From Rhodobacter capsulatus SB 1003 (GTDB lineage: Bacteria > Pseudomonadota > Alphaproteobacteria > Rhodobacterales > Rhodobacteraceae), in NCBI RefSeq assembly GCF_000021865.1, contig NC_014034.1, forward strand, positions 3,450,001 to 3,482,000: DNA of 32,000 nucleotides, read 5' to 3'. The notes under the pieces were generated by a model. The model did not search any database. It was not told where the DNA came from and saw only the letters and a list, made by a program, of their open reading frames with translations. A program made the position numbers and the translations under genes. Shown one piece after another: positions 7,245-30,962 of the stretch. The stretch's first letter is position 1. Every line of letters starts with the position of its first letter.

Positions 7245-7913
7245 TCAGTCCGCGACAGGCAGCAGCACCGGCACCTCGCGCCAGTCCTGCGGGAACATCC
7301 GCTCCAGCGCGGCGATCTTCGGCATGTCCACCTGAACGATATAGGGGTGGTCGGGGTTCAGGGTCAGGAAGTTCTGGTGATAGGCCTCGGCCGGGTAAAA
7401 GGCGGCGCCGGGGTCCAGCTGCGTGACGATCGCGGCGTCAAAGGCGCGGGCGCGGCCCAGCTGGTCGATATAGGCTTTCGCGATCCGGGCCTGATCCTCG
7501 GTCACGGGAAACAGGGCCGAGCGGTATTGCGGCCCGACATCGGGGCCCTGACGGTTCAGCTGCGTCGGATCATGCGCGACGGAAAAGAACACCTGCAACA
7601 GGTCGCCATAGCTGATCTGCTTCGGGTCGAAGACCACCTGCACGGCTTCGGCATGGCCGGTCTCGCCGCCCGAGACCTGATCGTAATGGGCTGTCGCCGC
7701 CGTGCCGCCCGCATAGCCCGAGGTGGCGCTGATCACGCCGTTCAGGTGCTGAAACACCCCCTGCACGCCCCAGAAGCAGCCGCCCGCGAAGATCGCGGTT
7801 TCCGGGCCGGTCAGCGCCGCCGCATCCACGGCGGGCGGCGGGATCACCCGGAATTCCTCGGCAAAGGCGGGGGTGGCAAGGGCAAGCGCAAGGGCAAGAA
7901 CAAGGCGGCGCAT
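7245..7913 (-). CDS. msrA: Peptide-methionine (S)-S-oxide reductase MsrA, exported form
   Basis: Active-site motif GGCFWGVQG. N-terminal signal peptide MRRLVLALALALATPAFA. RBS AAGGA sits 11 nt after the dipZ stop. Confidence 0.9.
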   Translation of the reverse strand: MRRLVLALALALATPAFAEEFRVIPPPAVDAAALTGPETAIFAGGCFWGVQGVFQHLNGVISATSGYAGGTAATAHYDQVSGGETGHAEAVQVVFDPKQISYGDLLQVFFSVAHDPTQLNRQGPDVGPQYRSALFPVTEDQARIAKAYIDQLGRARAFDAAIVTQLDPGAAFYPAEAYHQNFLTLNPDHPYIVQVDMPKIAALERMFPQDWREVPVLLPVAD

Positions 7914-7924
7914 CGGGCGATCCT

Positions 7925-9763
7925 TTATCCGAAGGTGAAGGCGAAGGCCTGAACGCCGGGGGCGTCGAAGCGGATTTCAAAGAGGTGGTCGGTGACGGGC
8001 CCCTTGGCGCGGTAAAGCTGATAGAGCCGGTCCTCGGTCACGATGCCCCGGCCCGCGGCATCGACGTCAAGCCCGGCATCGGCGCCGGGGGGCTGGCCGT
8101 CGATCGTCACGGTAAAGGGCACCGGCGCGGCCCCGGGCGCCAGCACCAGATGCAGGTCGCGGGCGTGAAAGCGCATCGTCACGCTGCCGGAGGGCGCAGT
8201 CAGCTGCGCGGCCTCGACCCCCACGGTCCAGTCGCCCGCCAGCGCCCATTCGTTCAGCCGCAGATCAGGCGCGGTGTAGCGATGCGGCTGATCGGCGATC
8301 AACCCCTCGGCATTCAGGTTCCCGCTGGCGCGCTCATGGCCCAGATAAGTCTCGGGCGAGAAGACCGCGCGCATATCGGCGGGGGCGGAAACGCCCGCAG
8401 CTTGCACCTGCGCCGTCGTGTCGGGACTGGCCCCGGCCTCGGCCAGAAGCGTGCGGATCACCTGTTCGGACTCCGCATAGCCGCCCTCGCCGAAATGGTG
8501 GTGGCGGATCTGCCCCTTGGCATCAATGAAGTAATGCGCGGGCCAGTAGCGGTTCGAAAACGCCCGCCACAGCGCGTAGTCGTTATCCAGCGCCACCGGA
8601 TAGGTGATGCCCAGATCGCGGACCGCCTTTTCGACATTGGCCGGGTTCTTTTCAAAAGCGAATTCGGGCGCATGCACGCCGATCACCACCAGCCCCTTGT
8701 CGCGATAGGCGGCGTCCCAGGCCTGCACATGCGGCAGCGCGCGCAGGCAGTTGATGCAGGAATAGGTCCAGAAGTCGATCAGCACGACCTTGCCGCGCAA
8801 CTGTGCGGCGGTCAGCGGCGGCGAATTGAGCCACTGCACCGCGCCGGTCAGATCGGGCATCTGGCCTTCGACCGGCAGGGCCTCGGGCTGGCCCTTGGCC
8901 ACCATCGCCGGGCCCGCCATCATCGCGGGGCCTCCGGTCATCGCGGGGCCTCCGGTCATCGCGGGGCCACCCGTCATCGCGGGGCCACCCGTCATCGCCG
9001 GGGCGGTCATCGCCGGACCCGTCATGGCCGGGGCGGCCTGCATCACCGTGCTGCCCTCGGGGCCGAAGCGGGTGAGCAGCGCCGCTTCCAGCCGGTTCGT
9101 CGAGGCAGTCGAAAGCCGCGTCAAAAGCCCGGTATCAAGCCCCAAAGCAATCGCCGCGACGCCCGCCAGGACCAGCGCGCCCAGACCACGCCGCAGCCCC
9201 TCGCCCAGACCCAGGCTGCGCTTCATCAGCGCAAAGACCCGCCCCCCGGCCAGAAGCGCCACCGCAAGCGCCGTCGCCGCCCCCAAGGCATAGGCGAACA
9301 AAAGCCCCGTCGTCGCGACGCTTGCCCCGTTCAGCGCCGCCCCGGTCAGGATCAGCCCGAGGATCGGCCCGGCGCAGGGCGCCCACAAGAGACCCGTGGC
9401 CACGCCCAAAACGGCCGAACCGAAGACCCCCTCGCCCCGCCCCGCGGCGCGGTTGCCCAGCGCGACCAAGGGTCGGGTCAGCCGTTCGGACAGCGCGGGG
9501 AACAAAAGCATCAGCCCGAAGACAGCCAGAAGGGTCAGCGCAAGCCCCCGCCCCCAGCCATTCGCGGCCACCGCCCAGCCACCGCCCACGGCCGCCAGGC
9601 TTGCCACCGCGGCAAAGGCCAGCGCCATCCCGGCCAGCATCGGCAAGCCATTCGTCAAAAAGGGTTTTCCGGCGCGGGCAAAGACGAAGGGCAAAACCGG
9701 CAGGATGCAGGGGCTGAGGATCGTCAGCACCCCGCCCAGCCAGGCCAGAAGGGCAAGGGTCAT
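7925..9763 (-). CDS. dipZ: DipZ-type thiol:disulfide electron transporter: CcdA/DsbD membrane domain fused to a TlpA-like thioredoxin and a DipZ C-terminal domain
   Basis: 612 aa. Membrane-domain Cys motifs LSPCILP and WAPCAGP, a Met-rich linker, the thioredoxin motif WTYSCINC, then about 180 aa of beta-rich C-terminal domain. Separated by 3 nt from msrB and 11 nt from msrA. Confidence 0.8.
   Translation of the reverse strand: MTLALLAWLGGVLTILSPCILPVLPFVFARAGKPFLTNGLPMLAGMALAFAAVASLAAVGGGWAVAANGWGRGLALTLLAVFGLMLLFPALSERLTRPLVALGNRAAGRGEGVFGSAVLGVATGLLWAPCAGPILGLILTGAALNGASVATTGLLFAYALGAATALAVALLAGGRVFALMKRSLGLGEGLRRGLGALVLAGVAAIALGLDTGLLTRLSTASTNRLEAALLTRFGPEGSTVMQAAPAMTGPAMTAPAMTGGPAMTGGPAMTGGPAMTGGPAMMAGPAMVAKGQPEALPVEGQMPDLTGAVQWLNSPPLTAAQLRGKVVLIDFWTYSCINCLRALPHVQAWDAAYRDKGLVVIGVHAPEFAFEKNPANVEKAVRDLGITYPVALDNDYALWRAFSNRYWPAHYFIDAKGQIRHHHFGEGGYAESEQVIRTLLAEAGASPDTTAQVQAAGVSAPADMRAVFSPETYLGHERASGNLNAEGLIADQPHRYTAPDLRLNEWALAGDWTVGVEAAQLTAPSGSVTMRFHARDLHLVLAPGAAPVPFTVTIDGQPPGADAGLDVDAAGRGIVTEDRLYQLYRAKGPVTDHLFEIRFDAPGVQAFAFTFG
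8921..8992 (-). repeat. In-frame 18-bp tandem repeat (4 units) encoding (MTGGPA)n, core of a Met-rich tract spanning 8903-9043
   Basis: Plus-strand units are catcgcggggcctccggt x2 (8921-8956) and catcgcggggccacccgt x2 (8957-8992). They are flanked by degenerate 15- and 18-bp units. Every cat is a Met codon of dipZ. Confidence 0.9.
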
Positions 9764-9766
9764 CGT

Positions 9767-10237
9767 TCAGGTCTCCGGGGTGAAGGTCATCGCGACCCCG
9801 TTCATGCAATAGCGCAGCCCGGTCGGCGGCGGGCCGTCTTCGAACACATGGCCCAGATGACCGCCGCAGCGGGCGCAATGCACCTCGGTCCGGGTCATCA
9901 TCAGCGCGCCATCAATGCGGGTGCCCACGACCTCGGGGCGGATCGGCTGGTAGAAACTCGGCCAGCCGGTGCCGCTGTCGAATTTCGTCTCGGACGCAAA
10001 CAGCGCCTGCCCGCAGCCCGCACAGGCAAAGGTGCCCTTGCGGTGTTCCTGCTCCAGGGGGCTCGTGTAGGGATATTCCGTGCCCTCCTTGCGCAGCACC
10101 GAATAGGCCTCGGGCGACAGAAGCTTGCGCCATTCCTCGTCGCTGTGCACCACCTCGAAGGTTTCGGCCGCGGCCTTGTGGGGGGCCAGACCGACGGCGG
10201 CCAGCCCCACCGACAGCAAAAGATGTCTCCGGTTCAT
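9767..10237 (-). CDS. msrB: Peptide-methionine (R)-S-oxide reductase MsrB, exported form
   Basis: Zn CxxC pairs CAGCGQ and CARCGG, plus GHLGHVFEDG and the catalytic RYCMN. Start set at ATG 10237 (MNRRHLLLSVGLAAVGLAP..., an RR-containing signal) preceded by GGAGGAG. The track ORF begins at 10294. Confidence 0.9.
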   Translation of the reverse strand: MNRRHLLLSVGLAAVGLAPHKAAAETFEVVHSDEEWRKLLSPEAYSVLRKEGTEYPYTSPLEQEHRKGTFACAGCGQALFASETKFDSGTGWPSFYQPIRPEVVGTRIDGALMMTRTEVHCARCGGHLGHVFEDGPPPTGLRYCMNGVAMTFTPET

Positions 10238-10324
10238 GCGCTCCTCCGCAGCTTGATCCGAAGCATCAGTTAGGGCGCTAACGGCCGCTGTCACGCGGCC
10301 GCGGGCAACGCTTTCGTGACTGGG

Positions 10325-11419: not shown

Positions 11420-11626
11420 TCAGTTCTTGCCGACGATGACGTCAGAGGCCTTGATGATCGCGCAGGCCTCGTCGCCGACCTTCAGCGCCAGATCGGCGGC
11501 GGCTTCGTTGGTGATCGAGGCGGTGACCACGGTCCCGCCGATGTCGATCTTGACATGGGTGGTGACATTGCCGGTCTCGACGGCGGTGACCTTGCCCGCC
11601 AGAATATTGCGTGCGCTGAGTTTCAT
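11420..11626 (-). CDS. mop: Molbindin (single TOBE/Mop domain molybdate-binding protein)
   Basis: 68 aa from ATG 11626: MKLSARNILAGKVTAVETGNVTTHVKIDIGG...IIKASDVIVGKN. RBS AAGGA. Confidence 0.85.
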   Translation of the reverse strand: MKLSARNILAGKVTAVETGNVTTHVKIDIGGTVVTASITNEAAADLALKVGDEACAIIKASDVIVGKN

Positions 11627-11711
11627 CGGGGTGTCCTTTCCCGGAACGATTGAGTCGATTTGTGCCAATTGCTTGCGGCAAGGCCAGTGTTAACCTTTGC
11701 TACCCCTTTGA

Positions 11712-11736
11712 CAATATGAGAAAAATCCACATATCG
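11712..11736. promoter_or_regulatory. Mo-box-like AT-rich dyad (candidate MopA/MopB, ModE-family, site) upstream of mop
   Basis: In mop orientation it reads CGATATG-N11-CATATTG, with arms complementary at 6 of 7 positions. It is the only strongly AT-rich dyad in the 160-bp interval, lying 86-110 bp upstream of the mop ATG. Confidence 0.5.
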
Positions 11737-11785
11737 CAGCCATGCGCGGGCTGCATGCCTCCTCTTCCGGCGGCGGGACGCGGGT

Positions 11786-12619
11786 TCAACCCTCGGGCAC
11801 GGTCAAAAGGTCGGTCAGTGCCGAGAGCGGCAGATCCAGACGGCGGATCTGCATCTCCTCCAGGAACTTCTCTTCCATTTTCGTCAGCGGACCGGGGATC
11901 AGCGCGACATGTCCAGCGCCCGAACGCTTGGCGATCTGACGCGCGTAAATCCGCAACAGCTGATCGTCGAAGCGGCAGCCCAGGAACAGGAACGGCCGCC
12001 CGGTGCGACGCTCTCGCACCTCTTCCGGAATCGGGGTCTGGATGTCGATCTCGGTCAGCACCTCGACGTAATCGGCGTCCGACAGAAGGAAGGAAGACCC
12101 CATCCGCACCAGACCGTTGGGCTTGTAGATCAGCGATTTCCAGCCCGGATCGGCGGTCGCGACGGGTTCGCCGAAACTGTCGAAGGCGGCGGTGAAGGCC
12201 TCGGAATGCGTCCCCGCCCGGCTGATCCCCTGCACCAGCCCCCAATCGCCGTCACCCGGGCCGAAGGCGCGCAGGATGCCCTCGTCATACCAGGTGTCAA
12301 CGACCATCGGCACCCGCATCGAGGCCAGCCAGTCATGCACCGGATTGGGCCGGTCGGGGCGGCCGACGAAAGCCTTGCGCACCAACGCGTCCAAGGTCGC
12401 GCGGAACTTCCGGCTTTCGATATATTGCGCCACCGCCCACAGATTGCCCGCGGCCCGGCGCGGCACCCGCACTTCGGCCTCCAGCCTGCGGCACAGCTCG
12501 GCCGTCGTGCCGGGCGCCTGCCCGCCCGACAAAGCCGAGACTTCGGGGCCCAGATAGGGGATGCGACGGCCCGCCCCCACCTCGGCCATGACGGTTTCCA
12601 GAAGCGCGATGTCGGTCAT
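11786..12619 (-). CDS. SIR2_2-like (DHS-like NAD-binding fold) protein with substituted catalytic residues; last cistron of the nifB operon
   Basis: 277 aa from ATG 12619, 2 nt after the nifT stop. Ordered motifs: IPYLGPEVS, NPVHDWL, VVDTWYDE, LIYKPNGLV, PFLFLGCRFDDQLLR. The track ORF start at 12736 would overlap nifT. Confidence 0.6.
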   Translation of the reverse strand: MTDIALLETVMAEVGAGRRIPYLGPEVSALSGGQAPGTTAELCRRLEAEVRVPRRAAGNLWAVAQYIESRKFRATLDALVRKAFVGRPDRPNPVHDWLASMRVPMVVDTWYDEGILRAFGPGDGDWGLVQGISRAGTHSEAFTAAFDSFGEPVATADPGWKSLIYKPNGLVRMGSSFLLSDADYVEVLTEIDIQTPIPEEVRERRTGRPFLFLGCRFDDQLLRIYARQIAKRSGAGHVALIPGPLTKMEEKFLEEMQIRRLDLPLSALTDLLTVPEG

Positions 12620-12621
12620 GC

Positions 12622-12834
12622 TCAGTCCTCGTCGGAAATCTTGCGCGCCTCGACCGTCACCGGCAGCTGCGGCGGGGTGTCGAACTCGGGCATGGCAAAG
12701 ACCCAGCCATTGGCCAGCTTCGCCCAGCCGCCCCAAAGCCCGGGTTTTTCCTGCGCGACCACCATTTCCTCAAGGTCCTTCTTCGGCACATAGGCCTCGA
12801 TCCCCTTGGCGGTTTCACGGATCATCACTTTCAT
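12622..12834 (-). CDS. nifT: NifT/FixU
   Basis: 70 aa, MKVMIRETAKGIEAYVPKKDLEEMVV..., typical NifT. ATGA overlap with the nifZ stop (12831-12834). Confidence 0.85.
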   Translation of the reverse strand: MKVMIRETAKGIEAYVPKKDLEEMVVAQEKPGLWGGWAKLANGWVFAMPEFDTPPQLPVTVEARKISDED

Positions 12835-13184
12835 CGGGAGAGGTCCTTTGCAGTTTGCGCAAGGCTTGCGCGGGTCACGATATGGGATTGCAGCGCCTGT
12901 TCGGCCTCGCGCGCGGCAAGGGTCCCGGCGGGCTTGATTTCCTTTTCGCGCATGCCGACGATCGAGCCGCGCTCGATGAAGTCGATGGCGTAGATGTAGA
13001 ATTGCGACAGGAACACGCCGATGTCGCGGACATAGCCGACGTCGCCCTTTTTCACCACGATGTCGCCGATCTCGAACCCGGCCATGGTGCCGTCGTTCTT
13101 CACCTGCTTGCGGGCGATCACCTTGTCGCCCGGCCGGTAGACGGGGGCGCGGTAGACCTCGATTTCACGGTCGTCGGTCGACAT
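12831..13184 (-). CDS. nifZ: NifZ
   Basis: 117 aa with NifZ-like PGDKVIARKQVKNDGTMAGFEIGDIVVKKGDVGYVRDIGVFLSQFYIYAIDF. The start lies 3 nt after the preceding stop. Confidence 0.85.
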   Translation of the reverse strand: MSTDDREIEVYRAPVYRPGDKVIARKQVKNDGTMAGFEIGDIVVKKGDVGYVRDIGVFLSQFYIYAIDFIERGSIVGMREKEIKPAGTLAAREAEQALQSHIVTRASLAQTAKDLSR

Positions 13185-13187
13185 GGG

Positions 13188-13925
13188 TCACTCCTTCAGA
13201 TGGGCAAGCCGCTGGATCGCGGTCTCGCGGATGATGTCTTCGGGGTCAGAGACAAGGCGGCGCAATTCCTCGCGCCCGCCTTCCTCGGCAACGGTGTGGC
13301 GGACGCGGAGATCGTCATCCGCCACGAAAAGCCCGGGCCGCCGCCGCGCCGCCACCCGCCGCACCAGCGGCTCGGGATCGGTGCGGAAGCGGTCAAGAAA
13401 AGCGGGGTCGATGCGGCGGGCGACCTCGGCGCGGACCTCGGGATCGGGGTCGGCACAAAGCATCGGCAGCATCCCCGTCTCGGCGCGGCGGGCAACGATC
13501 AGCCGGACATGGCCGTCCTTGTCCTGCAGCATCGGCAGCAGCCCGCCCGGCGGCAACCGATGCGCGACGGCGATCCGCACGGCGCGGTCCGGGTCGCGGA
13601 TCAGCCGTTCCGCATGCGCGGCGGGCAGGCGCAGCACCGCCATGCCCCGCACGGCCGGGTCCTCGTCGGCCAGAAGCCGCGGCAGCCGGAACACCGAGGC
13701 CGTCCGCGCCGCCTGCACCCGGGTCTCGAAATAGGGATGACCCAGGTTTTCATCCGCCAGTTCGGGGTTGAGCAGAAAGAACCGCTCGATCCGCTTGGCG
13801 TAGCGATCATTCAGGCAGGACCAGCCCAGCCCGCAATGCCCGCTCTCCAGCAGGTCCTGAAACCGGCAGGCGCCGCATTCCAGCGCCTGACCCGTCCAAT
13901 CAAGGGGTTCGGGGCCTTCGGGCAT
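13188..13925 (-). CDS. LRV-type protein: N-terminal 4-Cys Fe-S domain plus leucine-rich-variant (HEAT-like) repeats
   Basis: 245 aa. N-terminal segment CGACRFQDLLESGHCGLGWSC supplies 4 Cys. About 24-residue repeats of the form D(P/D)xxxVRxxVAxRL follow (DPAVRGMAVLRL, DPDRAVRIAVAHRL, DGHVRLIVARR, DPEVRAEVARRI, EPLVRRVAARR, DLRVRHTVAEE). The start lies 7 nt after the nifB stop. Confidence 0.8.
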   Translation of the reverse strand: MPEGPEPLDWTGQALECGACRFQDLLESGHCGLGWSCLNDRYAKRIERFFLLNPELADENLGHPYFETRVQAARTASVFRLPRLLADEDPAVRGMAVLRLPAAHAERLIRDPDRAVRIAVAHRLPPGGLLPMLQDKDGHVRLIVARRAETGMLPMLCADPDPEVRAEVARRIDPAFLDRFRTDPEPLVRRVAARRRPGLFVADDDLRVRHTVAEEGGREELRRLVSDPEDIIRETAIQRLAHLKE

Positions 13926-13932
13926 CGGATCC

Positions 13933-15426
13933 TCAGGCGGTAATGGCTTGTTTCTGGGTCATTCTTTCGCGGTAAAGCGCAAGGATGGCGGGTTCGATGT
14001 AGTCGTGGGCCCAGCTGTCGCGGGCGGTGATGCCGGCGCTTGCCAGGCCCTCGCGCGGGCAGTCGCCGATCTTGGCCACCAGAACCGTGTCGATCCCGTC
14101 AAGCGCCGCGATGACGCGGTCAAGACGGTCTTCCGCGCCGCCGCCGTCGACGCAATAGTTGTCGCAGCGGCGGTGAAAGGCGAAGCGGACGCCCGTGGCA
14201 TCGACCTCGAAGACCTGGAATTCCGTCGCATGGCCGAAATGCTGGTTGATCCGGCCGCCGCCCTGGGTCGTCACCGCGACCAGAAGTTTCGGCGAGCTGG
14301 CCGCGCAGGCCGCCTCGGTCGCGGCCTGGGCGGCCTCGGCGGCGGCGCGGCGGTCTTCGCGCTCGGCGCCCACCCAGTCGCGATAGGTTTCGCGCGCGGC
14401 GGGATCATAGACCGGCGCCTCGGGCACGAGGTCCAGGGTGAATTCCTGACCCCGATCCTCGCCCAGAAGCCCCACCGCATCGGCGCGGCACTGGCGGCAG
14501 TGCTTCATCAGATTGGCCCCGCCCGCGCAGGCCTCCTGCACCGCCAGAAGCTCGGCCGCCGTCGGGCCGCGCTGCCCGGTCAGGCCGAAATGCGTGCCAT
14601 GTTCGGGCGCCGAAATCAGCGGCATGATGTTGTGCAAAAACGCGCCGCGGCGTTTGACCTCGCGGTTCACCTCCAGGAGATGCGCGTCGTTGATCCCGGG
14701 GATCAGCACCGAATTGACCTTGACCAGGATGCCGCGCGCGACGAGACCATCGAGCGCCGCCATCTGCCGTTCATGCAGGATGCGGCTCGCCTCGACGCCA
14801 TAGATCCGTTTGCGGTTGTAAAAGATCCAGGGGTAGATCTTTGCCCCCACCTCGGGGTCGATCATGTTGATGGTGATCGTCACGTGATCGACATTCATCT
14901 CGACCAGTTCATCGAGGTGATCGGGCAGGGCGAGCCCGTTCGAGCTCAGGCACAGCTTGATGTCGGGGATCTGCGCCGTCACCAGCCGGAAGGTTTCCTT
15001 CGTCTTCAGCCAGTCATAGGCGCTGTCGCCCGGCCCGGCGATGCCCAGAACCGAGAGCTGCGGCACCTCATTCGCCACCGCAATCACCTTGCGCGCGGCC
15101 TCCTCGGGCGTCAGCCGTTCCGACACGACACCGGGGCGGCTTTCGTTCGAACAATCGTATTTGCGGTTGCAGTAATTGCACTGGATGTTGCAGGCGGGCG
15201 CCACCGACACATGCATGCGGGCGAAATAATGATGCGCCTCTTCGGAATAGCAGGGGTGATCCTTGACCTTGGCCCAGGTCGCCGGGTCCATGTCTTCGGG
15301 TTTTTCCTTGCTACCGCAGCCGGTTGCCGATCCGGTCGCGGAACAGCCGCCCGCGGCCAGCGCGGCCGAGAGGCTCTCCTTCGAGCCGATCGCCAGGGTG
15401 CCAAGGGCCACGACATTGTCCGACAT
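13933..15426 (-). CDS. nifB: NifB, radical-SAM FeMo-cofactor (NifB-co) synthase with a C-terminal NifX-like domain
   Basis: 497 aa from ATG 15426 (MSDNVVALG...), RBS GGAGAG. Radical-SAM motif CNIQCNYCNRKY. C-terminal NifX-like segment LLVAVTTQGGGRINQHFGHATEFQVFEV. The track ORF start at 15588 would run through the promoter and the nifA terminator. Confidence 0.95.
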   Translation of the reverse strand: MSDNVVALGTLAIGSKESLSAALAAGGCSATGSATGCGSKEKPEDMDPATWAKVKDHPCYSEEAHHYFARMHVSVAPACNIQCNYCNRKYDCSNESRPGVVSERLTPEEAARKVIAVANEVPQLSVLGIAGPGDSAYDWLKTKETFRLVTAQIPDIKLCLSSNGLALPDHLDELVEMNVDHVTITINMIDPEVGAKIYPWIFYNRKRIYGVEASRILHERQMAALDGLVARGILVKVNSVLIPGINDAHLLEVNREVKRRGAFLHNIMPLISAPEHGTHFGLTGQRGPTAAELLAVQEACAGGANLMKHCRQCRADAVGLLGEDRGQEFTLDLVPEAPVYDPAARETYRDWVGAEREDRRAAAEAAQAATEAACAASSPKLLVAVTTQGGGRINQHFGHATEFQVFEVDATGVRFAFHRRCDNYCVDGGGAEDRLDRVIAALDGIDTVLVAKIGDCPREGLASAGITARDSWAHDYIEPAILALYRERMTQKQAITA

Positions 15427-15467: not shown

Positions 15468-15483
15468 AGCAAGAACCGTGCCA
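15468..15483 (-). promoter_or_regulatory. sigma54 (-24/-12) promoter of nifB
   Basis: The minus strand reads TGGCAC GGTTC TTGCT. The predicted transcription start is about 30 nt upstream of the nifB ATG. Confidence 0.85.
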
Positions 15484-15521: not shown

Positions 15522-15537
15522 TGTCGGGAATGCGACA
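15522..15537. promoter_or_regulatory. NifA-type upstream activator sequence TGT-N10-ACA for nifB
   Basis: TGTCGGGAATGCGACA is a perfect TGT-N10-ACA. It lies about 40-55 bp upstream of the -24 element. Confidence 0.65.
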
Positions 15538-21035: not shown

Positions 21036-21051
21036 AGCAAGAAGCGTGCCA
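21036..21051 (-). promoter_or_regulatory. sigma54 promoter of the iscA-nifUSVW operon
   Basis: The minus strand reads TGGCAC GCTTC TTGCT. The predicted start is about 25 nt upstream of ATG 21000. Confidence 0.85.
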
Positions 21052-26553: not shown

Positions 26554-26569
26554 AGCAAGCAACGTGCCA
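26554..26569 (-). promoter_or_regulatory. sigma54 promoter of the nifENX operon
   Basis: The minus strand reads TGGCAC GTTGC TTGCT. The predicted start is about 17 nt upstream of the nifE ATG. Confidence 0.85.
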
Positions 26570-27363: not shown

Positions 27364-27378
27364 GCAAAGCCCGTGCCA
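27364..27378 (-). promoter_or_regulatory. Candidate sigma54 promoter for the peroxiredoxin gene
   Basis: The minus strand reads TGGCAC GGGCT TTGC, starting 9 nt after the rnfF stop. It gives a leader of about 117 nt. No canonical TGT-N10-ACA was found within about 200 bp upstream. Confidence 0.5.
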
Positions 27379-30858: not shown

Positions 30859-30874
30859 AGCAAGAACCGTGCCA
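30859..30874 (-). promoter_or_regulatory. sigma54 promoter of the fprA-fdxC-fdxN-rseC-rnfF operon
   Basis: The minus strand reads TGGCAC GGTTC TTGCT, identical over 19 nt (TGGCACGGTTCTTGCTGCA) to the nifB promoter. Confidence 0.8.
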
Positions 30875-30946: not shown

Positions 30947-30962
30947 TGTCGGAAACCCGACA
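30947..30962. promoter_or_regulatory. NifA-type UAS TGT-N10-ACA in the fprA/rnfA divergent region
   Basis: TGTCGGAAACCCGACA has perfect 6-bp arms. It overlaps the 16-mer CCGACAAATTGTCGGA at 30938-30953. It lies 73 bp upstream of the fprA -24 element and about 200 bp from the rnfA -24 element. Confidence 0.65.

Follow-up and report, generated by a model that had tools for sequence, protein, structure and literature searches.

The gene Rcc03262 of Rhodobacter capsulatus SB 1003 encodes a SIR2-like protein of 277 amino acids (aa) and lies in nif region A, the stretch of 32,000 nucleotides (nt) that is called the window (contig NC_014034.1, positions 3,450,001 to 3,482,000). We find that the gene closes the nifB operon, that its product is predicted to share the fold of anti-phage enzymes which cleave nicotinamide adenine dinucleotide (NADases), with a catalytic residue of these enzymes replaced in every relative scored, and that it accompanies nifT in the nif clusters of many diazotrophs. 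We favour, at a probability of about 0.5, the explanation that it is a nif-dedicated accessory protein of the SIR2_2 fold which is not an NADase, has a binding or adaptor role with a remodelled pocket and acts with NifT.

An earlier, sequence-only reading of this stretch had placed the start of the gene 2 nt after the nifT stop codon and had taken it for the fifth cistron of a σ54-driven operon, and both points are confirmed. On the coding strand the junction with nifT reads TGA GC ATG. The preceding genes are separated by 7 nt (nifB and a 245-aa open reading frame, ORF) and 3 nt (this ORF and nifZ), and nifZ overlaps nifT by 4 nt. Upstream of nifB stand a σ54 −24/−12 sequence and an upstream activator sequence (UAS) for NifA (Table 1), and a terminator scan found no terminator-like site between the start of nifB and the start of the SIR2-like gene. 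One listed site (12009..11995) is a 5-bp stem within the SIR2-like coding region, and the five sites in the scanned stretch are not above the number in shuffled sequences (mean 3.2, standard deviation 1.9). The tight junctions together with the σ54 site and the NifA UAS thus make the SIR2-like gene the last cistron of the σ54/NifA-driven nifB operon, translationally coupled to nifT. The ATG at 12619 is taken as the start because the N-termini of homologs, the gene calls and a ribosome-binding site within the 3′ end of nifT agree on it; a longer TTG-started frame given by the ORF finder (to 12736) was rejected as the gene. Several R. capsulatus genomes encode an identical protein, with the gene called at the same 277 aa, and there the gene order is fdxB-nifQ-orf-iscN-nifU-nifS-nifV-nifW, nifA-nifB-orf245-nifZ-nifT-SIR2_2 and mop. 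An internal σ54-like site in nifT (TGGCTGGGTCTTTGC, 12695-12709) lacks a UAS and, since such loose matches are common (43 in the window), is treated as chance. In published proteome data Rcc03262 (‘SIR2 family protein’) was present at 7.3 and 6.6 fmol and NifT at 17.8 and 11.5 fmol in the wild type, and both were absent in a strain deleted for nifA1 and nifA2 (PMC6925177).

Five motifs had suggested by eye that the protein has a Rossmann domain of the SIR2_2 type. All five were located (I20-S28, N91-L97, V106-E113, L163-V171 and P209-R223), and both profile search and structure prediction bear the assignment out. Pfam SIR2_2 (PF13289) matches residues 105-259 above its gathering threshold (E 4.7e-19; 69.3 bits, cut-off 24.5), and an AlphaFold2 (AF2) model built on 58 homologs has a predicted local distance difference test score (pLDDT) of 93.9 and a predicted template-modelling score (pTM) of 0.92. 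Foldseek returned KomC, DSR2 or ThsA for all of the top 50 matches in the PDB (E 7e-9 to 1e-6, template-modelling (TM) score 0.59-0.66), and by sequence a profile of the nif-linked family matches SeThsA (2.8e-8) and BcThsA (6.8e-6). Pfam SIR2 (PF02146) gave no match up to E 10, no NCBIfam family matches the protein, and PADLOC gave only a partial ThsA match (E 0.002, 14.8 bits, residues 40-119). There are two cysteines, Cys43 and Cys215, and thus no Zn module. Profile and model together indicate a protein of the SIR2_2 fold and not of the CobB/Sir2 deacylase family (PF02146); these deacylases have a distantly related Rossmann-type NAD-binding fold and the same catalytic Asn/His logic, but the SIR2-like protein lacks their Zn-binding Cys4 module as well as the catalytic Asn.

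The likeness to the defence proteins is one of fold and not of context. The SIR2 domain of ThsA from Thoeris (PDB 6LHX, 7UXT, 8BTO; Foldseek E ~4e-8, TM ~0.64) has in common with the SIR2-like protein the Tyr-Asp of NYD, an (S/T)xDDY helix, an IP motif and an LG strand, but the SIR2-like protein has neither a SLOG sensor domain nor a ThsB/TIR partner, and its gene, unlike that of ThsA, is NifA-regulated and embedded in nif operons. The best structural matches are KomC from Kongming and the SIR2 domain of DSR2 (E 7e-9 to 3e-8). KomC likewise stands alone, at ~264 aa, but both are activated NADases with an intact N-Y-D...H pocket where the SIR2-like protein has W-Y-D...N, and it is without KomA/KomB or a HEAT-repeat sensor. 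It is a single-domain protein whose gene has nifT and mop as neighbours, and none of the Thoeris, DSR or Kongming sensor and partner genes turned up in its annotated neighbourhood.

We scored the catalytic positions in 280 relatives: the best 80 species loci out of at least 578 found in a one-genome-per-species collection, 120 close database homologs, and 80 metagenomic loci of a second, His-less branch, which was sampled by a metagenome scan seeded with that branch. Sequence and profile alignments to KomC and ThsA place Trp110 opposite the Asn of TTNYD (ThsA N112) and Asn168 opposite the catalytic His of K(L/M)HG (ThsA H152, KomC H146). Both substitutions had been noticed in the sequence-only reading, and they turn out to differ in kind. 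Trp110 is invariant (80/80 species loci, 120/120 close homologs and 80/80 second-branch loci). Asn168 stands up for this protein and does not extend to the family: residue 168 is His in 76/80 species loci and in 112/120 close homologs, including R. capsulatus DSM 1710, whose protein is 95% identical (L007 2562-3392). Asn168 is confined to a clade formed around this strain and R. viridis, both with the codon AAC; exceptions to His in the alphaproteobacterial branch as a whole are sporadic (Asn, Tyr, Gln, Leu or Ile), with Tyr in R. etli. Among the 80 second-branch loci it is Leu in 50, Phe in 13, Ile in 10, Met in 2, Trp in 1, Val in 1 and His in 3, so that 73 carry Leu, Phe or Ile. By these alignments the change of His to Asn168 is a recent polymorphism within R. 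capsulatus, and both catalytic residues are indeed lost in this protein, though for different evolutionary reasons. The same His-to-Asn change was engineered in the inactive KomC H146N, whose N146 aligns with the natural Asn168.

Two further motifs that contact NAD are rebuilt. GAGxS has become GP(G/E)xx, and a profile alignment to SeThsA sets lipylgPevla opposite LGAFIGAGLSI; G24 is invariant, P25 is found in 84%, and at position 26, where the loop has its second Gly, either Gly or Glu occurs, with Glu in Rhodobacterales. LGY(G/S), LGF/YS in ThsA, has become LGCRF, with Cys215-Arg216-Phe217 nearly invariant. A signature of the nif-linked SIR2_2 subfamily can be written as PYLGP(G/E), xDxWYD, YKPxG, SDxDYVEVLTEIDIQTPIP and FLFLGCRF, together with a place in a nif cluster downstream of nifT, and every element is present here. 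The canonical motifs PFLGAGAS / TTNYD / K(M,I,L)HG / LFLGYGL are retained in more distant representatives, and ordinary SIR2_2 enzymes are therefore the ancestors of the nif-linked clade. The pocket of DSR2 consists of N133-Y134-D135...H171 (PMC11263360), and in ThsA the exchange N112A abolishes both the cleavage and the binding of NAD (PMC7272460). Since binding is lost in ThsA N112A as well, and since two more NAD-contact motifs are rebuilt, the proposal of the sequence-only reading that the protein binds NAD or ADP-ribose without hydrolysing it is by analogy doubtful.

The SIR2-like gene is under strong purifying selection, the ratio of nonsynonymous to synonymous substitution rates (dN/dS) being 0.09 against R. 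capsulatus DSM 1710 and 0.08 against R. viridis. The constraint therefore does not depend on which of the two, His or Asn, stands at residue 168. Across the 80 species, which average ~46-60% identity, 56 positions are at least 97% identical, and these are enriched just after the core β-strands, at their C-terminal ends (Fisher p = 0.02), which is where Rossmann folds bind ligands. The residues that replace canonical NAD contacts are themselves frozen (Pro25, Asp108, Trp110, Cys215, Arg216 and Phe217). The segment S180-P198, an acidic helix and loop, has 16 of its 19 positions at least 97% identical in the 80 species; it is also present in the second branch and almost invariant in both. Judged from the alignments, this is the pattern of a site or interface that was remodelled and then fixed, and not of a drifting pseudo-enzyme.

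The association with nif genes, and with nifT in particular, extends far beyond R. capsulatus. The best 80 species loci, which include Rhodobacterales, Bradyrhizobium, Methylocystis, Acetobacter, Rhodopila, Gallionellaceae and Methylophilaceae, all lie within nif clusters, and in all 80 the first nif gene detected upstream in the same orientation is nifT. This holds in three architectures (nifB-orf-nifZ-nifT-X, nifS-nifT-X-nifB and nifA-nifT-X-nifB, where X is the SIR2-like gene). From the nifT stop to the SIR2-like start the distance is −4 to +8 nt in 60 of the 80 loci; most of the larger gaps look like mis-chosen start codons, and in three betaproteobacterial loci (L052, L061, L085) nifT is 272 to 1505 nt away. 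A plasmid collection holds 74 records with the gene, almost all of them rhizobial symbiotic plasmids. On R. etli p42d and in M. loti 582 the order is nifA-nifB-fdx-nifZ-nifT-SIR2, and the two proteins, 43% and 40% identical in the alignment, keep the Trp; residue 168 is Asn here, Tyr in R. etli and His in M. loti 582.

In the second branch other nif genes are present on all 50 metagenome contigs that reach 4 kb or more, nifH usually lies downstream of the SIR2-like gene, and nifT lies upstream on the same strand within 2.5 kb in 35 of the 39 loci with enough flank. The correlation of the SIR2-like and NifT trees goes in the expected direction but is weak and not corrected for phylogeny (mirror-tree partial correlation 0.49, against 0.32 and 0.22 for control pairs). 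Apparent natural NifT-SIR2 fusions were rejected: P0224 and P0156 have a NifT-like start and then run out of frame across the junction, as artefacts of low-quality assemblies, and P0237, P0238, P0266, P0268 and P0269 are canonical TTNYD/HG SIR2_2 proteins. Among single metagenomic representatives, the contigs of P0124, P0139 and P0163 are too short to give nif linkage, and P0155 adjoins modABC-like genes and sufE. A sister SIR2_2 clade carries the motif DTNRD with the catalytic His changed to Met or Leu (L087 4329-7213; L095 174-2740); its gene order is small ferredoxin, thiol-peroxidase-like protein, SIR2_2 and ClpX paralogue, with no nif genes detected on the available flanks.

Genes of this kind have been met before. 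The msi351 gene of M. loti R7A ends a NifA-regulated operon, nifB-fdxN-nifZ-fixU-msi351, that is preceded by a NifA-type promoter, and its product was named ‘prokaryotic sirtuin-like family’ (PMC3538637). In Z. mobilis, N2 fixation induces ZMO1821, for which a deacetylase function was guessed (PMC8600466, PMC8594446), PST_1325 of P. stutzeri stands just before nifH (PMC11332353), a SIR2-2 gene adjoins nifH in Thalassolituus genomes, and there are similar mentions for Rhodovulum and Paenirhizobium. Together with RHE_RS30545 of R. etli, the genes from M. loti, Z. mobilis, P. stutzeri and Thalassolituus are alike in family, in their position after nifT/fixU or before nifH, and in NifA- or N2-dependent expression, and Rcc03262 is the same in kind; for ZMO1821 and PST_1325 the likeness is drawn from published descriptions, not from sequences. 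The existence of the gene is thus already documented as a ‘SIR2 family’ nif gene, and its nature has been misread as that of a deacylase. We found no paper on the Asn-to-Trp change, the defence-type affinity or the pairing with nifT in the searchable literature, which is incomplete. The remark of the sequence-only reading that no role had been assigned to a SIR2 fold in a nif operon agrees with these searchable papers.

The SIR2-like protein is, on our reading, a nif-dedicated offshoot of the SIR2_2 family which shares its fold with ThsA, DSR2 and KomC. It is produced only once NifA turns on the nifB operon, and it is translated in step with NifT. Its NAD-cleaving centre has been rebuilt and not left to decay, with the catalytic Asn always Trp, the catalytic His dispensable, and new frozen residues in the dinucleotide loop and the strand-4 loop (Asp108, Cys215, Arg216, Phe217). 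With this centre rebuilt, the protein probably neither hydrolyses NAD nor deacylates proteins. It may instead be a non-catalytic binding or adaptor protein, in which the remodelled crevice and the acidic helix (180-198) would bind a small ligand or a partner protein, or indeed both, and it would act jointly with NifT on nitrogenase assembly, stability or protection, in a contribution that is conditional and not essential. The place in the operon, the NifA dependence, the fold, the substitutions, the purifying selection and the synteny with nif genes and nifT are shown, whereas the lack of NADase activity, the partnership with NifT and the role in binding are inferred.

Several observations weigh against this explanation. 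In 19 of the 35 second-branch loci with nifT upstream, one to three genes come between it and the SIR2-like gene, coding for DUF6129, a DegT-type aminotransferase or a small ferredoxin, and four of the 39 loci with enough flank have no nifT upstream; a strict partnership with NifT is therefore not universal. Examples of such insertions, with a small DUF6129 ORF and often a DegT-type aminotransferase and a 2Fe-2S-like ferredoxin, are L061 8277-10846, L117 5801-8861 and L092 5510-6861. The pocket residues His168, Tyr111 and Asp112 are kept in ~95% of alphaproteobacterial orthologs, and residual or altered chemistry is possible in this His-keeping branch, to judge from the residues retained. Furthermore, an msi351::lacZ mutant of M. 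loti is fully effective in symbiosis (Fix+), and a fixU mutant is slightly impaired (PMC3538637). NifT is small, conserved and non-essential, and is still described as of unknown function. Since the msi351 mutant is effective and NifT is non-essential, the role of the SIR2-like protein would be subtle or conditional.

The alternative that survives best, although we regard it as unlikely, is a neofunctionalised enzyme whose rebuilt pocket (Asp108, Trp110, Tyr111, Asp112, Lys166, Cys215, Arg216) catalyses or chaperones another reaction, on a nucleotide-like or anionic small molecule, for the supply of nitrogenase cofactor or clusters. The invariance of the replaced residues, their clustering at the C-terminal ends of the Rossmann strands and the strongly purifying selection would all fit such an enzyme, and the DegT-type aminotransferase and small ferredoxin next to the gene in the second branch hint at small-molecule chemistry. 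However, it comes without a candidate substrate, the M. loti ortholog mutant is Fix+, and the His, which alone among polar catalytic candidates is common to it and the SIR2 enzymes, gives way freely to Leu, Phe, Ile, Asn or Tyr. Moreover, we know of no SIR2_2 protein that does non-NAD chemistry.

We consider it improbable that the protein is a retained NAD-dependent enzyme of the sirtuin type (deacylase, ADP-ribosyltransferase or NADase) regulating nitrogenase or NifA post-translationally, as was guessed for ZMO1821 and for the Thalassolituus gene. That guess is in line with the database label, ‘SIR2 family NAD-dependent protein deacylase’, with the His, Tyr and Asp kept in the pocket of most alphaproteobacterial orthologs, and with the acetylation of Nif proteins in Z. 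mobilis (PMC8600466). The label itself is not supported by the sequence comparisons, since the protein belongs with SIR2_2 and not with CobB/Sir2, failing to match PF02146 and having only two cysteines and no Zn module. All members of the family have Trp for the catalytic Asn, a position at which the exchange N112A kills ThsA, and the His has gone from this strain and from an entire branch although the remainder of the protein is conserved; the Rhodobacterales in addition carry Glu for the second Gly of the dinucleotide loop.

The sequence-only reading had also hinted at a link to the NAD-dependent ADP-ribosylation that switches nitrogenase off. R. capsulatus has DraT/DraG, and the fold is of a dinucleotide-binding type. 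The hint does not survive comparison across genomes, and a sensor of NAD or ADP-ribose feeding DraT/DraG is very improbable: Rhizobium, Sinorhizobium and Mesorhizobium carry the family on their symbiotic plasmids, Bradyrhizobium, Methylocystis and Acetobacter have it too, and so does Z. mobilis, for which no homologue of draT or draG was identified (PMC8594446). This distribution is far wider than that of DraT/DraG, and the Asn whose loss abolishes NAD binding by ThsA is missing. Equally hard to credit is a defence-derived gene that only travels along with nif islands and plays no part in fixing nitrogen. In its favour the closest structures, all of them anti-phage NADases, the ortholog mutant without symbiotic phenotype and the frequent horizontal transfer of nif clusters can be cited, but it is at odds with at least 578 loci, always in nif clusters where flanks are available and fixed in position relative to nifT and nifH, with NifA dependence and a dN/dS of ~0.09, and with a neighbourhood free of Thoeris, DSR or Kongming sensor and partner genes and a PADLOC match of only 14.8 bits.

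Returning to the accessory protein that we prefer, the gene is found among the nif genes of diazotrophic proteobacteria, in hundreds of species and with rhizobial symbiotic plasmids included, is co-expressed with nitrogenase and is widely mislabelled as an NAD-dependent protein deacylase. The defence-type SIR2_2 fold, the universal change of Asn to Trp with a dispensable His, and the location almost always downstream of nifT redirect its study, and suggest a focus on binding partners and ligands, NifT first, and not on acetylomes. The gene also bears on the minimal nif gene sets used for engineering, although the Fix+ mutant of M. loti tempers the physiological impact to be expected. A more specific idea, which we advance tentatively and at low odds, is that the SIR2-like protein and NifT, joined in the second branch by DUF6129, make up an unrecognised nitrogenase accessory module, whose ex-NADase pocket, plugged or re-tuned by the Trp, would read a nucleotide or redox metabolite, or which would grip a Nif protein through the acidic helix, thereby adjusting nitrogenase maturation, protection or turnover under particular stresses. 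Such a module, if real, would give NifT its first mechanistic context, and an immune-type NADase fold would have been recruited as a non-catalytic metabolic accessory and domesticated for core metabolism.

Table 1. Features of the nifB operon and of the SIR2-like gene, in positions of the window.
Feature	Position	Strand	Remarks
NifA UAS TGTCGGGAATGCGACA	15522..15537		TGT-N10-ACA, upstream of nifB
σ54 −24/−12 promoter of the nifB operon TGGCACGGTTCTTGC	15469..15483	-	TGGCAC-N5-TTGC, 43 nt 5′ of the nifB start
nifB	13933..15426	-	497 aa; Radical_SAM and Nitro_FeMo-Co domains
245-aa Cys-rich ORF (‘lrv’ of the sequence-only reading)	13188..13925	-	From the ORF listing
nifZ	12831..13184	-	Pfam NifZ on an identical locus
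nifT	12622..12834	-	70 aa; NCBIfam TIGR02934, E 4.8e-29
GAGGA ribosome-binding site (Shine-Dalgarno) of the SIR2-like gene	12626..12630	-	6 nt before the ATG, within the 3′ end of nifT
SIR2-like gene (Rcc03262)	11786..12619	-	277 aa, begins MTDIALLE; fifth and last cistron of the nifB operon
IPYLGPEVS, I20-S28	12536..12562	-	Corresponds to the GAGxS dinucleotide loop, here remade as G-P-(G/E)
Trp110 codon TGG	12290..12292	-	Replaces the catalytic Asn of TTNYD
Asn168 codon AAC	12116..12118	-	Position of the catalytic His; lineage-specific His-to-Asn change
S180-P198 SDADYVEVLTEIDIQTPIP	12026..12082	-	Acidic helix and loop on AF2 secondary structure
FLFLGCRF, F210-F217	11969..11992	-	Corresponds to the strand and loop LFLGY(G/S)L of canonical members
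Spacer from SIR2-like stop to mop	11627..11785	-	159 nt; GCAGCC-N7-GGCTGC hairpin, T-run and ATATG..CATAT palindrome

For the 245-aa Cys-rich ORF of the operon, Pfam and NCBIfam searches gave no match. The spacer that follows the SIR2-like gene is the end of the operon, without a strong terminator. A terminator after the gene was considered and rejected, the hairpin being present with a fold no better than that of shuffled sequences (z = −1.08), and the terminator scanner reported no site in the spacer; its palindrome looks Mo-box-like by eye. Beyond it lies mop (68 aa, TOBE; window 11420-11785 with the spacer). At low molybdenum (Mo) the level of Mop is about halved in the nifA1-nifA2 deletion strain (161 against 86 fmol; PMC6925177), a drop that could reflect read-through from the nifB operon.

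Further σ54-type sites of the form TGGCAC-N5-TTGC lie on the minus strand at 21037-21051, 26555-26569, 27364-27378 and 30860-30874, upstream of other nif and rnf-region genes. One of them is accompanied by a second perfect TGT-N10-ACA NifA site (30947-30962) and has −24/−12 letters identical to those of nifB. In two complete R. capsulatus assemblies nifB is called not as 497 aa but in two pieces, of 240 and 276 aa and of 269 and 113 aa (L001 7195-8687; L003 7194-8687), which are either assembly frameshifts or disrupted nifB1 copies. Elsewhere in the window, 18-nt tandem repeats at 8898-9036 (~5.6 copies, 90% matches) encode a (G)PAMTG repeat linker within a 612-aa protein (ORF 7925..9763, minus strand), which lies between msrB-like (9767..10294) and msrA-like (7245..7913) genes.

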